Virus record (IMG/VR): IMGVR_UViG_3300025012_000074
Location: 7,106-71,105 of that record
Reading direction: 5' to 3' (one strand)
Length of the DNA: 64,000 nucleotides
Source of the DNA: a virus
Shown: positions 7,046 to 11,796 of the stretch, piece by piece
Position numbering within the stretch: the first letter of the stretch is position 1
Layout of the letters: each line of letters starts with the position of its first letter
Notes under the pieces: generated by a model
The model's input: the letters and a program-made list of their open reading frames with translations, nothing else
Told to the model about the DNA's origin: nothing
Databases searched by the model: none
Program-made: the position numbers and the translations under genes

Positions 7046-9314
7046 GATGAATCTCGTAAACCGCGGCTGGCCGTCCTCCGGATTGCCCGAAACTTTTCCG
7101 ATCCGATTCCGGCCGGACGTATCCCAGGTCGGTCAAATACTCGAGCGCCGGGCGGATCGCCTCTTGGGAATTCAGAGAGCCCCAATTGTTTCGTTGAACA
7201 GTCCGCGGTGTGAACCGGTCCTTCAAGTCGCCGGTTCGGATTTTGTTCAGGATGGTAATCGCCCGGATCGTGTCCGCCGAGTCGCCGGCGAAATACATCC
7301 GGCGGGCGTGCGCCTCGAAGTATCGAATCAGCGTCACGGCCTTGACCACCGACGGGGCCGTGACGAAGCCGTGACGGCCGGAGACGACGTGATCGACGAG
7401 CGCGAGGACCGGGACGAGGGACTGGTATTTCAAAAGATGATCCTGGAGGTCGGTCGAGTCGACGCACCGTTCCCGATTTTCGTTCACGGCCGATTTCAAT
7501 TCGACATACCAGGCGTCAAAAACTCTCTGCGCTTCATCATCAAATCGGAGGTATGGGACGTGCTTCGGGTCCTCGGTCATGGTCGCCCCGATTTCCTCGG
7601 CATCTATACGTGAAATAAACTCGTAGACGGTTCGCGCGCTTCGCTCGGCCGCTTCGTCGGCCGGACGGTCGGGGACCTTGAAGTTTTCCGGCGGGTCCGG
7701 CCAGACGGCCGCGCCGAACCGAGCCAGGAATCCGTCCGATACTTTCCCCTTGCCGGACAGCAGCCTGGACTGCAACACCTCGGGCTGCGTTCCGCCGACC
7801 ATCGACAGGCACAACCCCTCGCAGCGGGACGAACCGCGGCCGATCCGGTCGACGTTGTGCGTGCCGGTTCCCGACCAGCACTCGAGGTAGAATTGCCGAG
7901 CGCCCTGATTGCCTTCACGCTGGAACGAATCGAACAGGCCGGCGATCTCGTCGCGCTCCATGAGCATCCCGCGCGGATTATCTTTCAAAAGGTCGGCGAG
8001 TTTTTCGATCGTCGTATCCTTGACGAGAAACCGGGCCGGCGTCGCTTTTTCCTTTTCGATTTCCGCGTCTGCCAGTTGCTCGGCGATTTGTCGCGCTTCC
8101 GTATTCGCCTCGTCGCTGGTTCCGACCCGCATGGACTTCGCAAGTTTGGCTTTCAAATCGTTGATCTTCGCTTCCGCGTGGATCTTGTCCGCTCGCGATC
8201 CCTTGGACGCGAACCGCTCAGCCGCTTCCGATTCGATTTTGTGGATGGGCTTCAACGCCTCGCGGAGCGCCGGAGATTTTCCCGAGCCCGGCGTTCCGAT
8301 CAACAGCGACCAGATGACGCCCGGCTGAACCCAGTTCGAAAACTTGATCGGCTTGATGCCGACCCGGCGTCCGATCAGCCCGGCGCAGGATGTCAGCGCT
8401 GCGACCGCCACAAAGTCGAGCGGCGCGCCGGTCTGTTCCGCGATGTCGGAAATCCACGGTCGAAGGCTTCGCGGTAGCAATTCGATGTCGAATCTCGGAA
8501 CGGGTAGCAACGGGTTCGGCATCGGCTCCGGATCTCGCCAGCCGCCCGGCTGAACTTTCAGCGGCTTTTTTCCGACGATCGTTGATATGGCGTTCGCCGC
8601 GTCGGCCCGCAGCGTGTCCACGTCGATCGCGTTGACCGCCAGTTCGGCGAGCCGTTCGCATTGGATCTTTATCCGCCGGCGGTCGTAGGCGTCCTCGAGG
8701 AGAATCACCGACGAGTCGAGCGATAACCAATCCTGCGTGTTGACGAACGTCGTAAATTTAACTTCGTCGGCAAACGCCGGAAACCGGCGCTTCAAATCCG
8801 TCAGGACAGAAAAAAACTCGATCGGCTGGCCGTTCGCCTTCATCGTCCGCAGGGATTCGAACACCTTGCGGCAGAGCGGGTCCGCGAAGTGCTCGGGCTC
8901 GAGCGTGTCGATGATCCGATCGACGGCCGTCGGATCGTAGTATTTCAGGCACGTCCCAATGACAAGCCGCTCGGCTTCCGGCTGGCTCGTCCAACCCGCC
9001 TTGTTACCGACGATCTCCGGGACTGACGAATAGACGGGAGGGACGAACGGGATCAGCGCGTCGGCGGCCGGTTGCGGGGCGAGTCGCGGCCCGTGCTTGT
9101 CGTCCATCGCTTCGGAAAACCAGTCATCGTCGGCCGGCTCTGAAATATTTTTTTCCTCGCTTGACACGCTCACGGAATCTCCGGTATAATCGGGGTGTCG
9201 TTCTACCTCTCCCTGTTCCGTTCCAGCCGGCTCGTCACCGGCTGGTTTTATTTTCTCCGGTTGCGGTCCGAGCGTGGAGTCGAACGGGATACCTTCGATT
9301 TCGAAAAGGTTCAT
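7023..9314 (-). CDS. Replication helicase-like protein: DnaB N-terminal-like domain + DUF3987 (YfjI) P-loop domain
   Basis: AERLVIGTCL...EPEHFADPLCRKVF (DnaB-N-like); Walker A GTPGSGKS; RDEIAG, DRIGRG, GGTQP, DGFLARF. Confidence 0.85.
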   Translation of the reverse strand: MNLFEIEGIPFDSTLGPQPEKIKPAGDEPAGTEQGEVERHPDYTGDSVSVSSEEKNISEPADDDWFSEAMDDKHGPRLAPQPAADALIPFVPPVYSSVPEIVGNKAGWTSQPEAERLVIGTCLKYYDPTAVDRIIDTLEPEHFADPLCRKVFESLRTMKANGQPIEFFSVLTDLKRRFPAFADEVKFTTFVNTQDWLSLDSSVILLEDAYDRRRIKIQCERLAELAVNAIDVDTLRADAANAISTIVGKKPLKVQPGGWRDPEPMPNPLLPVPRFDIELLPRSLRPWISDIAEQTGAPLDFVAVAALTSCAGLIGRRVGIKPIKFSNWVQPGVIWSLLIGTPGSGKSPALREALKPIHKIESEAAERFASKGSRADKIHAEAKINDLKAKLAKSMRVGTSDEANTEARQIAEQLADAEIEKEKATPARFLVKDTTIEKLADLLKDNPRGMLMERDEIAGLFDSFQREGNQGARQFYLECWSGTGTHNVDRIGRGSSRCEGLCLSMVGGTQPEVLQSRLLSGKGKVSDGFLARFGAAVWPDPPENFKVPDRPADEAAERSARTVYEFISRIDAEEIGATMTEDPKHVPYLRFDDEAQRVFDAWYVELKSAVNENRERCVDSTDLQDHLLKYQSLVPVLALVDHVVSGRHGFVTAPSVVKAVTLIRYFEAHARRMYFAGDSADTIRAITILNKIRTGDLKDRFTPRTVQRNNWGSLNSQEAIRPALEYLTDLGYVRPESDRKSFGQSGGRPAAVYEIHPKLLKRI

Positions 9315-9838: not shown

Positions 9839-10191
9839 TCCTTCCCCATCCTCTCCACCGCTTCGACCTCGAGCAAGCGCGGGTCGCCCGGCTCAAACGC
9901 GGCGTTTGATACTATCCTCGGTTCGGTCGATGTCGAATCCTTCGGCATGCCCGACAACTCGCGCAGCTGCAACACCTTCCCGAGCGCGATCCGGGCGGCG
10001 ACGCACGCCTCGCGCCAGCGGTCCGGCGGATCGTAGGACGACCGGCCGTATCCTTCGTTCGACAGTTCGCGCAGCGTCTCAAGCGCCTGGCGATAGAGCG
10101 GATCGTTGCCGATCAAGTCGGTGGCGACCAAGTGCGCGTCGCGGCGAAGCGTGTAGTAGCGGGCGATCAAATTAGATTTGATGTCGTTCAT
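9835..10191 (-). CDS. Hypothetical protein
   Basis: 118 aa, overlaps both neighbours in operon. Confidence 0.6.
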   Translation of the reverse strand: MNDIKSNLIARYYTLRRDAHLVATDLIGNDPLYRQALETLRELSNEGYGRSSYDPPDRWREACVAARIALGKVLQLRELSGMPKDSTSTEPRIVSNAAFEPGDPRLLEVEAVERMGKE

Positions 10192-11140
10192 TTCGCATTT
10201 CCATTTCCGTTCGAAGGATCGCGCGTCCGATGACTTCGACGACAGCCGGGACCACCGAGTTACCGGCCGCTTTCAAAGCGCAACGATTCCACGCGCGATA
10301 CTCGATCATTTGGTTTTTCTTCCACCATTCCGCGACAGCATCCGGGCTGCGATGAACTCGATCAGCGAGTCGTCGGATGAAAGATCCATCCAATCCGCCG
10401 GGTAGTTCATGAGCGTTGCGACCCATCTGGAATTCAGCGTCCCGCGATTCGATGAGTCGCGGCGGTTCCCATTCGTGTTGGGGCTGTCCGGGGCGGGCGG
10501 GCCATCTCGCAGCATCGCTCCCGGCACCGTGTCCCGCCCTCGCTGCGAGGGCGGGAGCGTGTCGTTCTTCGCGTCCTGCGCTGCCGGGGTCGGCCATGAT
10601 TCGAAGATTTTCCCGGCCGGATTCCCGCCGCCCGCGTTCGGCCGGTGCGTCTTCGACCCCGGTTTCTTCGCCGACTCGTTCCTGCCGCCCGAATTGTTCG
10701 CGTCCATCGCGGTTGCGGTCGGCCAATCTTTCGAAATTCGAAGCAGCGAAGGCGTCTTCCGTTTTCCGCCTACGCCCTTCGCTCGCCCGTCCGAAGCCAT
10801 CGGAGTCGGAAACATCAAATCTTCGTTCGGTGTAGTTGTATTCGAATCGTCGGCCGTCGTCGTCGAATCCGAGTCGTGCGACGAACCAAGCGCGCTTTCG
10901 TTTGTGCGGAGCGCCGATGTCATCCGCACCGATAACCATGGGCGGCGCGACGGTGTAGCCGAGGCTTTCCAAGTCGCCGATAACCCGGTCAGCGCCTCGA
11001 GTTCGGATAGCACTGACGTTTTCAACGAGGACGTAAAGCGGTCGGCAGCCGCCGACAATTCGATACATGTGTCGCCAAAGAGAAGACCTTGAACCTCGTT
11101 CAATTCCTAACCCCTTCCCGGCGACTGATATATCCTGGCA
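10172..11140 (-). CDS. C5-cytosine DNA methyltransferase, segment with motifs IV-VIII and X (no own start before the catalytic Cys)
   Basis: Frame reads (P)CQDISVAGKG...LYVLVENV...GAPHKRKRAW...LKAAGNSVVP; open upstream of Met 11068 to the catalytic Cys. Confidence 0.85.
   Translation of the reverse strand, partial: CQDISVAGKGLGIERGSRSSLWRHMYRIVGGCRPLYVLVENVSAIRTRGADRVIGDLESLGYTVAPPMVIGADDIGAPHKRKRAWFVARLGFDDDGRRFEYNYTERRFDVSDSDGFGRASEGRRRKTEDAFAASNFERLADRNRDGREQFGRQERVGEETGVEDAPAERGRRESGRENLRIMADPGSAGREERHAPALAARAGHGAGSDAARWPARPGQPQHEWEPPRLIESRDAEFQMGRNAHELPGGLDGSFIRRLADRVHRSPDAVAEWWKKNQMIEYRAWNRCALKAAGNSVVPAVVEVIGRAILRTEMEMRNERHQI
10306..11103 (-). CDS. Overlapping-frame methyltransferase beta-type subunit (variable region + motif IX)
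   Basis: FPTP/WPTA/WPTP repeats and LNSRWVATLMNYPADW (motif IX-like); TTG start overlaps the stop of the N-terminal fragment. Confidence 0.75.
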   Translation of the reverse strand: MNEVQGLLFGDTCIELSAAADRFTSSLKTSVLSELEALTGLSATWKASATPSRRPWLSVRMTSALRTNESALGSSHDSDSTTTADDSNTTTPNEDLMFPTPMASDGRAKGVGGKRKTPSLLRISKDWPTATAMDANNSGGRNESAKKPGSKTHRPNAGGGNPAGKIFESWPTPAAQDAKNDTLPPSQRGRDTVPGAMLRDGPPAPDSPNTNGNRRDSSNRGTLNSRWVATLMNYPADWMDLSSDDSLIEFIAARMLSRNGGRKTK

Positions 11141-11375
11141 CGGTTGAACTCGGGAACCCGCCGACGATCATGTCAGCGAGTCCCCGATAAACCTCCCCGT
11201 CCAGAGTCGTCACGTCTTCGTGTATAATAGCGGCTGGCCAATGCTTGCTGAGAATCAATCGGCAGAACGGATCAATCTCGCAGAACGCCAGCGTTTCAAA
11301 TCCTTGAGTCCGCTCGAGCCCTGCGGAAATCCCGCCGACCCCGCTGAACAAATCCAATATTTTTAATTTTTCCAC
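11100..11375 (-). CDS. C5-cytosine methyltransferase N-terminal fragment (motifs I-III, first half of IV)
   Basis: LDLFSGVGG, CEIDP, HEDV, DMIVGGFP, then leaves the catalytic frame. Confidence 0.88.
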   Translation of the reverse strand: MEKLKILDLFSGVGGISAGLERTQGFETLAFCEIDPFCRLILSKHWPAAIIHEDVTTLDGEVYRGLADMIVGGFPSSTVPGYISRREGVRN

Positions 11376-11403
11376 GTCGTCCTCCCCTTCCCTTCGTCGT
11401 CCA

Positions 11404-11473
11404 ATAATACCATACTGCGATAGCGAAAATCAACCAATAATCTGTTGACATACCACGATATTTCGATTATGCT
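11404..11473. promoter_or_regulatory. Divergent promoter pair at the strand switch
   Basis: Plus strand TTGACA(11445)-N17-TATGCT; minus strand TTGATT(11433)-N18-TATTAT. Confidence 0.7.
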
Positions 11474-11586
11474 AGAAACATGCAGGAAATAATCCAGTGG
11501 GCGGCCGGCGTGATCGCAGCCGGGTTGATCGTCCTGACGCTGGCCGGCGCGGCCGCCAACGGCGACGAGGAAACGGCGGACTTCGA

Positions 11587-11796
11587 ATGATGGAGATCAT
11601 CGTAATTACGTTTTCTGGTGCGCTTGCATTGTCGGTGTGTCTTGCGTTCGACGCCGGGAAGGCGTCCGGACGGGTCGAAGGCCGGATGATCGGGATCGCG
11701 GAGGAGCGGGCGGAAACGATGGATTCGAAATACAACGCATTCTGTCTTAATGTCGCATCCGCCCGCGTTCACGCGCTGAACGGTGAAATCTGGTAA
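11587..11796 (+). CDS. Small membrane protein
   Basis: MMEIIVITFSGALALSVCLAF hydrophobic N-terminus; coupled to a 36-aa hydrophobic ORF at 11480-11590. Confidence 0.5.
   Translation: MMEIIVITFSGALALSVCLAFDAGKASGRVEGRMIGIAEERAETMDSKYNAFCLNVASARVHALNGEIW

Follow-up and report, generated by a model that had tools for sequence, protein, structure and literature searches.

The window analysed here, a 64,000 nt stretch of viral DNA (positions 7,106 to 71,105 of the 71,105 nt IMG/VR record IMGVR_UViG_3300025012_000074, CheckV completeness 55), carries on its minus strand a putative two-chain C5 cytosine methyltransferase gene in which 10 nt separate the Pro and Cys codons of catalytic motif IV in the chain termed alpha. 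Short inserts interrupt the same codon junction in a large group of related loci, where they nearly always begin with a stop codon and where some of the interrupted genes also carry an in-frame HNH endonuclease. The window insert would be an aberrant member of this class of gaps. The odds are about even that the alpha chain of the window is not made in useful amounts, the insert being either a decayed gap or the scar of error-prone repair at an endonuclease site.

Motif IV of the window reads GGG TTC CCG up to and including the Pro codon (11153–11151, minus strand, as for all features of the gene), is followed by the insert AGTTCAACCG (11150–11141), whose first in-frame codon is AGT and whose last three bases repeat the CCG Pro codon, and resumes with the Cys codon TGC (11140–11138) and CAG GAT ATA TCA. 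The open reading frame (ORF) at 11375–11100 (91 aa, GTG start) matches positions 1–70 of the Pfam profile PF00145 (E 4.7e-13, 49.7 bits against a cut-off of 22), and positions 71–323 are matched (E 4e-17) by a second frame, open from 11140 to 10172. Because the profile is split in this way across two frames, the break lies exactly between the motif IV Pro and Cys, as an earlier note on this DNA had claimed for a CCG-bounded insert of 10 nt. Contiguous Pro-Cys in one frame with motif I does not occur in the window; Pro lies in one frame and Cys in another, 10 nt apart. Deletion of the 10 nt in silico yields a single frame of 397 codons, in agreement with the claim that removal of the insert restores a complete enzyme of ~397 aa. 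Ribosomes that do not shift would read 16 more codons through an out-of-frame tail, SSTVPGYISRREGVRN (11150–11100), which ends in TGA at 11102–11100, and standard decoding would thus give a 91 aa N-terminal fragment. The stop does overlap, as had been noticed, the TTG (11103–11101) that starts a 265-codon ORF in the third frame (11103–10306); this ORF, then called a motif-IX ORF, corresponds to the conserved nested beta chain of an enzyme of the M.EcoHK31I kind, and the two chains that the note had suspected are thereby accounted for. Given the overlap of the fragment's TGA with the TTG, translation of beta may continue, although the chain would have no working partner. The gene is single-copy in the 71 kb record (55 % complete), in which no other PF00145 gene and no second methyltransferase elsewhere was found.

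The insert is reproduced, with 0 differences and 0 gaps, in two Logan contigs, each assembled from a different sample of the same study: X1 (21,915 nt), which spans 10000–11600, and X3 (12,428 nt), which spans 10000–11508. Depth is ~10–13, contigs hide rare alleles, and both samples may be the source of the IMG/VR record. An assembly error, one of the simpler options in the earlier note, is unlikely given that the contigs of two samples reproduce the insert, and an assembly or sequencing artefact is the least probable of the explanations weighed here. The assemblies of the two samples agree, and a non-repetitive insert of 10 nt is atypical of sequencing error.

In a first survey of 109 loci with motif IV in alpha, 102 were uninterrupted, every one of them with contiguous Pro-Cys, and five (L024, L046, L050, L051 and L053) read Y/I-P-stop-P-C, encoded as CCT TGA CC(A/T) TGC, with alpha intact to motif X and divergent elsewhere; the remaining two were L007 and the window. 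A profile built from N-terminal fragments of this kind matched 1893 proteins of 44–160 aa (E ≤ 1e-5). Among the best 120 of these 1893, 69 end at the motif-IV Pro, 2 at the Cys, 41 extend through PCQ, 7 end earlier and 1 ends otherwise, and several such fragments are located on contigs of 40–110 kb or in named genomes (Effusibacillus, Paenibacillus). The pattern Pro-TRR-Pro was found in 50 IMG/VR contigs (TGA 20, TAG 16, TAA 12, TGG 2), of which both TGG contigs (L136, L157) were rejected as gap alleles, not being methyltransferase genes. With the middle codon left free, 28 contigs were found and 28 of 28 had a stop; with the post-stop codon left free, all 62 contigs had stops, the codon that follows coding for Pro (28 contigs), Leu (27), Ser (6) or Val (1). 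L188 (the Val case) and L209 are not methyltransferase genes and were rejected, and in the remaining 60 of 60 the post-stop codon is YYN. When gap length was left free, the matches listed included gaps of 7 nt (L325, TGA A TCA) and 9 nt (L309, TGA TGA CCT; L286, TAA GGA CCG), while 16 apparent gaps of 13 nt proved to be uninterrupted genes with a chance out-of-frame match. Among loci of the QDIS subtype, a further scan found Pro-stop-Pro-Cys in seven, together with L231, whose gap is 8 nt.

Pooled, the 195 loci in which motif IV was located comprise 109 without an insert, 82 with 6 nt, one each with 7 and 8 nt, and two with 9 nt. At 90 % identity over the alpha core the 86 gap loci form 57 clusters and the 109 plain loci 71, with none mixed. 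The pooled set is enriched for gaps by the way in which loci were fetched; in sets assembled by protein similarity the gap rates are 0/12, 5/59 and 0/25. In a weakly resolved FastTree phylogeny of 121 cluster representatives (119 columns) the gap trait requires 19 changes against a mean of 40 when shuffled, and 0 of 500 shuffles were as low; the starred branches force at least 4 changes, and 27 of the 28 rows in one clade have a gap. Of the 86 gap loci, 74 keep an alpha frame that is open as far as motif X (7 are cut by a contig end and 5 end early), compared with 96 of the 109 plain loci (4 and 9, respectively), entry into this count having required 115 stop-free codons after the Cys. Gap genes and uninterrupted genes preserve the downstream part of alpha equally well, although in the former this part lacks its own start codon. 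No cultured phage with a gap at the Pro-Cys junction was found, a tblastn search with the N-terminal alpha fragment placing uninterrupted Paenibacillus phage genes first, and no paper describing a stop or gap at a methyltransferase Pro-Cys was found in the open-access literature.

Several departures near motif IV were seen alongside the gaps. In L007, a viral contig of 46 % GC, TGA stands at ~2992–2994 in place of the expected second Gly codon of T-G-G-Y-P-C, and may reflect a code with TGA as Gly or a nonsense mutation. The N-terminal ORFs P0134 and P0151 extend one codon further than most, to ...GGFPC, and the gaps of some genes may therefore follow the Cys codon. In P0122 (10 contigs, the longest 60,647 nt) the sequence is intact through GGFPCQDISVAGK and then runs out of frame (ISRVTRN) to a stop, which places the break a few codons past motif IV. 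L084 switches frame at a run of nine C (~840–860), after the N-terminal part and before motif IV; sequencing error or slippage is the likely cause.

The gaps follow a rule in their composition. Of 60 cluster-site variants, 59 begin the gap with a stop codon (TGA 27, TAA 19, TAG 13) and all 60 end it with YYN (CCN 35, CTN 17, TCN 7, TTA 1); in 49 the stop is followed by C. CCC serves as take-off codon in 2 of the 60, compared with 35 of 71 uninterrupted clusters. These figures are partly constrained by the search patterns, the unbiased counts being those of the 109-locus survey and of the scans with a free middle or free post-stop codon. Readthrough was rejected as the family mechanism because all three stops are used, because the post-stop codon is Leu or Ser in 25 of the 60 variants though Pro-Cys is invariant in uninterrupted genes, because near-identical genes of the L128 cluster have CCT TAG CCT and CCG TAG CTG, and because L309 has two stops and L325 a change of frame. 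A recoded genetic code was also rejected, as this one site has all three stops and code 11 leaves each gene open elsewhere, as was a +1 frameshift at the stop, which would enter the beta frame or lose Pro-Cys. In the mechanism proposed instead, peptidyl-tRNA-Pro would leave CCN and land on the nearest following codon whose first two bases are pyrimidines. Landing codons of the form YYN could pair with anticodon GG by G:C or G·U, and a hop from CCN to YYN would give canonical GG(F/Y)PCQ in every gap variant. By analogy with known bypassing, ribosomal hopping may explain the 6 nt gaps of the family, a proposal that we regard as evenly poised.

Some of the interrupted alleles are also set apart by an endonuclease. 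An in-frame insert of ~145 aa follows motif III and precedes the motif-IV strand in the N-terminal alpha ORF of 16 gap loci out of 86 (representing 15 of the 57 clusters; L134, L145, L151, L152, L154, L160, L165, L170, L181, L195, L203, L223, L227, L231, L309 and L325) and in 0 of the 109 plain loci. This module consists of a helix-turn-helix (HTH) domain (Pfam HTH_7) and an endonuclease (phrog_2340, E 5e-20 to 2e-24, and phrog_8446, 7545 and 8048, ‘HNH endonuclease’). The searches that supplied the plain and the gap loci overlap only in part, and the contrast is accordingly suggestive and not a controlled comparison. The target of the endonuclease would be uninterrupted motif-IV DNA, which the gaps would alter; such alteration would also account for the scatter of the gaps over the tree. 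By analogy, we infer that the family inserts may be endonuclease-linked ‘coding gaps’ skipped by peptidyl-tRNA-Pro. The option of a mobile-element scar raised in the earlier note fits the HNH link in the relatives. No HNH endonuclease was found in the record of the window (71 kb, 55 % complete).

With the family the window insert shares the junction and a second Pro codon (CCG/CCG); it departs in its length of 10 nt, in shifting the frame, in having no stop within the gap and in the lack of an HNH module. Its position is more than chance, being one of ~397 codon junctions and the same one as in 86 of 195 related loci. An ordinary inactivating indel, unrelated to the family gaps and located at this junction by chance, is accordingly improbable: indels do happen, and the insert has only a 6-mer in common with nearby sequence, but the junction is exactly that of the related loci, and the insert ends in a second Pro codon, as do 35 of the 60 family variants. 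The 6-mer, TTGAAC/GTTCAA, occurs three times, at 11089–11094, at 11098–11103 (the beta TTG start) and at 11144–11149 (inside the insert). Local repeats near the insert are limited to these copies, which are too short to show a templated origin, and template switching from CGAGGTTCAA, ~50 nt downstream, is speculation as to how the insert arose. As a separate observation, the copy at the start site and the one just downstream could pair as a hairpin of 6 bp with a 3 nt loop, too short for significance.

No relative shares the 10 nt, which were found neither among the homologous loci, whose comparison the earlier note had proposed, nor in the pattern scans. Scans of IMG/VR with beta and with a neighbouring 118 aa protein found no relative, and a scan with alpha found distant relatives only (27–54 % identity in the best segment). 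The window alpha forms a long branch in the FastTree phylogeny, close to QDIS-type genes both plain and interrupted. In a related phage, represented by X5 and X7 from two samples of another study, the slot at 10193–11377 is replaced by 1525 other letters, with flanks that differ at ~7–10 % of the compared positions; replacement of the whole gene slot suggests a locus in flux. The 30-letter loose ends of X5 and X7 resemble, by eye, the start and end of a different alpha allele that is ~340 nt longer.

Inactivation of alpha is favoured because gaps that lack a stop, or whose length is not divisible by 3, are rare in the conserved set, the second kind being seen in only 2 of the 86 gap loci. Several observations weigh against this reading. 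One of these two loci, L325, combines a 7 nt gap with an intact HNH module and an alpha frame open to motif X, and so provides a frame-shifting gap that looks functional. The 10 nt insert is the sole allele in the contigs of the two samples, and it is the only lesion in the gene: alpha has 75 + 322 stop-free codons with all catalytic motifs, and beta is intact. A lone lesion with alpha and beta intact fits a working gene as well as a recent lesion, and with neither several lesions nor lost catalytic residues the locus could be a pseudogene only through recent inactivation. The take-off and landing codons could pair with the same tRNA (CCG...CCG, followed by TGC), and intact frames together with matched codons point away from an inactive alpha. 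Lastly, AGT is the fourth rarest sense codon in the long ORFs of the window (37 of 14,084 codons, 2.6 per 1000); for comparison, the hungry AGG codon of Acinetobacter phages is given as 0.08 % in the excerpted text of bioRxiv 10.1101/2022.08.31.505936.

The principal alternative to inactivation, tentative but possible, is a working gap. In a fraction of the ribosomes, peptidyl-tRNA-Pro would leave CCG with the rare AGU in the A site, re-pair with the second CCG 10 nt further on and resume at UGC, while ribosomes that do not hop would end at the TGA overlapping the beta start. A hop would give canonical GGFPCQDIS (junction peptide ...GGFPCQDISVAGK) and full-length alpha. In favour of it are the perfectly matched CCG codons, the rare AGT and the intact alpha and beta, the junction shared with 57 gap clusters in which alpha is equally intact downstream (74/86 compared with 96/109), and the failure of readthrough in the family, where all 60 post-stop codons are YYN with only 35 Pro, L309 has a double stop and L325 a gap of 7 nt. 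A rare A-site codon, moreover, takes the place of the stop in some gene-60-type cassettes according to the extracts of bioRxiv 10.1101/2022.08.31.505936. Against it, the window has no stop, unlike 59 of the 60 family variants; a hop of 10 nt exceeds any in the relatives (6–9 nt); the 10 nt insert is not conserved; and no stimulatory RNA structure was detected, a 101 nt segment folding at –27.3 kcal/mol (z 0.49), with 131 of 200 shuffles folding at least as well. Hops that are not programmed are described as inefficient in the available part of the review by Atkins et al. (2016; PMC5009743). The programmed hop put forward in the earlier note thus gains indirectly from the 57 clusters with a stop and YYN at the same junction and an intact alpha, and loses in the window itself, which lacks the stop, the structure, the endonuclease and a shared insert. 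By our estimate a bypass hop in the window is less likely than inactivation.

Apart from the insert, the locus has, as judged from its sequence, the make-up of an M.EcoHK31I-type two-chain phage C5 cytosine methyltransferase, with motifs I–VIII and X in alpha and a predicted recognition/motif-IX part in beta. The N-terminal part of alpha (11375–11151; 75 codons from the GTG start to the motif IV Pro; phrog_363, E 2.8e-24) contains motif I as LFSGVGG (FSGVGG at 11348–11331). The C-terminal part (11140–10172; 322 open codons; phrog_363, E 1.9e-30) contains VENV (ENV at 11023–11015), PHKRKR (10909–10892), WPARPGQPQHEWEPPR and GNSVVP (10264–10247), and motifs VI (ENV), VIII (RxR) and X (GNxVxP) are present as invariant columns of the alpha alignment. 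The beta ORF (11103–10306; phrog_1008, E 2.7e-18; homologs P0001–P0032) is in the +1 frame of alpha and lies wholly within the alpha gene (11375–10172), the nested layout. It contains W-P-T-P/A-x-x-x-D repeats, WPTPAAQDAKNDTLPPSQRGRDTVPGAMLRDG (10596–10501) and LNSRWVATLMNYPADW (10437–10390); the last we take to resemble motif IX, by eye against the consensus. No match of beta to PF00145 or another Pfam family, to NCBIfam or to PDB sequences was found. A purine-rich stretch, GGGAAGGGG (11111–11119), 8–16 nt upstream of the beta TTG, may be the Shine–Dalgarno site for beta; it also encodes the conserved AGKG of alpha.

The nested frame is a general property of these genes. The same arrangement is annotated in Paenibacillus larvae phages, as gp55 methyltransferase and gp56 ‘g55 internal gene’, and by eye the third frame of the window differs from the +1 frame of the phage Shelly at 3 of 32 residues, compared with ~10 agreements in the overlapping methyltransferase frame. 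A beta-type ORF is found in the +1 frame of Paenibacillus phage Shelly and of 13 of 13 IMG/VR loci that were fetched with the alpha frame (GC 0.43–0.64). These 13 loci have motifs I, IV, VI, VIII and X in frame 0, and W-P-T-P-x-x-x-D repeats with LNPxWVExLMGxPxGW in the +1 frame, which has 237–389 open codons compared with only 22–124 in the +2 frame. Hidden Markov models (HMMs) of the alpha and beta frames were run on 80 metagenome and 30 genome loci fetched through beta, and all 114 loci that gave an alpha core hit had a beta-type match in the +1 frame; the 114 include 12 HMM training loci and the window, and 11 further loci had no core hit. Beta usually reaches almost to the end of alpha, and a usable alpha-only 3′ segment was available in only 9 gap-cluster representatives.

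A model of the complex of C-terminal alpha, N-terminal alpha and beta reached an interaction prediction score from aligned errors (ipSAE) of 0.88, compared with 0.01 for the best of three controls; the ipSAE mark applied is reached by 58 of 80 solved complexes and by 2 of 110 mismatched pairs. The predicted local distance difference test (pLDDT) of the partners is at least 58, and the runs share at least 62 % of contacts. The model places beta 220–256, the motif-IX-like segment, against the motif X region of alpha. This supports binding of alpha and beta to each other, with the proviso that solved monomeric C5 methyltransferases may underlie the model's pass. Because the model joins a 75 aa N-terminal piece, a C-terminal piece and beta, it also bears on another route to activity in the window, a three-piece enzyme whose alpha pieces are made separately and combine with beta. 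A further route would be a +1 frameshift inside the insert, giving GGFPSSPCQ. Reassembly of split C5 methyltransferases is on record (PMC3404938 and PMC2836561, in extract), but no ATG, GTG or TTG occurs between the upstream stop of the C-terminal alpha frame and the Cys codon, and the insert contains no slippery sequence for tRNA re-pairing in the +1 frame. Both of these routes together are very improbable.

Not all related loci divide the enzyme in the same manner. In L018, L030, L098, L102, L112, L116 and L117, and in P0005, P0008 and P0016 (Brevibacillus, Paenibacillus and others), motif X is in the beta frame, and such loci are split into alpha (I–VIII) and beta (repeats, IX, X) rather than nested. 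In P0019 and P0021 an N-terminus with motif I is fused in frame to beta-type sequence and motifs IV–VIII are skipped, perhaps through a frame change upstream of motif IV. The gap-bearing L131 and L141 have a motif-IX-like NPEFIEWMMGLPxGWVT in the alpha frame itself. In L011–L017, at ~2738–2745, the +1 ORF starts at an ATG located 5 nt upstream of the alpha ATG (ATGACATGG), and its N-terminus, WILPKQLHTS, is conserved better than the overlapping N-terminus of alpha.

The most far-reaching reading, which we consider doubtful, is that the window and its relatives carry so far undescribed mini bypass cassettes of 6–10 nt, spread by an in-frame HTH-HNH homing endonuclease, and that the member in the window works. 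Efficient natural bypassing is established essentially for one cassette family, that of T4 gene 60. If the reading is true, the relatives would provide the first natural ‘stop-hop’, and a stop-less, frame-changing hop of 10 nt would work as well. In 57 diverged clusters a stop and a codon that tRNA-Pro could pair with are located inside the most conserved dipeptide of the enzyme, with the HNH module only in interrupted alleles. Should ribosomes hop there, the loci would constitute a large natural set of minimal bypass sites that vary in stop, landing codon and length (6, 7, 9 and perhaps 10 nt), and a second case of a bypass insert that moves with a homing endonuclease. For annotation, ‘methyltransferase fragments’ of 80 aa that end in GG(F/Y)P, and unannotated nested beta genes, would be parts of one enzyme rather than debris. 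For the phage of the window, what matters is whether the sole C5 methyltransferase gene that it has still works.

Among two-chain enzymes, C5 methyltransferases of the M.AquI type are made of two polypeptides that form one enzyme. Relatives with motif X in the beta frame (L098, L102 and L112) resemble the M.AquI division into alpha (I–VIII) and beta (target recognition domain (TRD), IX and X), whereas the window has motif X in the alpha frame. Its arrangement of alpha and nested beta is that of M.EcoHK31I, the heterodimeric C5 methyltransferase of E. coli described in PMC2836561, a likeness of layout and not of compared sequences. The TRD of M.EcoHK31I is assigned to alpha in the accessible portion of that paper, whereas the recognition-like conserved repeat region of the window is in beta; the same portion makes no mention of a Pro-Cys interruption.

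For the gaps themselves the closest parallels are found in ribosomal bypassing and homing elements. In T4 the 50 nt bypass insert and the HNH endonuclease MobA form one mobile element, in which the insert shields the DNA from MobA and is kept after loss of the endonuclease; inserts of this type are located at codons of invariant residues, with a stop or rare codon in the A site (Manning and Atkins, bioRxiv 10.1101/2022.08.31.505936, as excerpted). The gaps are alike in being short non-coding inserts at invariant codons of a conserved enzyme, in their link to HNH, in being retained by lineages that lost the endonuclease, in a stop or rare codon in the A site, and in take-off and landing codons that would pair with one tRNA. 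They differ in length (6–10 nt compared with 50 nt) and in host gene, in the in-frame fusion of the HNH of the relatives with the upstream gene part, and in that no stem loop was found in the window. In-frame stop-hopping has been shown with synthetic constructs, with no natural case known according to the accessible text of the 2016 review (PMC5009743). The synthetic E. coli sites consist of a take-off codon, a stop and a pairing codon, as do the 6 nt gaps of the family; they are, however, engineered and of low efficiency, whereas the window has no stop and would require a frame-changing hop of 10 nt. The ShiLan insertion in actinophage DNA methylase genes likewise places an HNH homing element at conserved residues inside a phage methylase gene (PMC11855218, in part), but there the HNH is out of frame, no stop interrupts the methylase frame, and the available passages describe no short gap in a catalytic motif.

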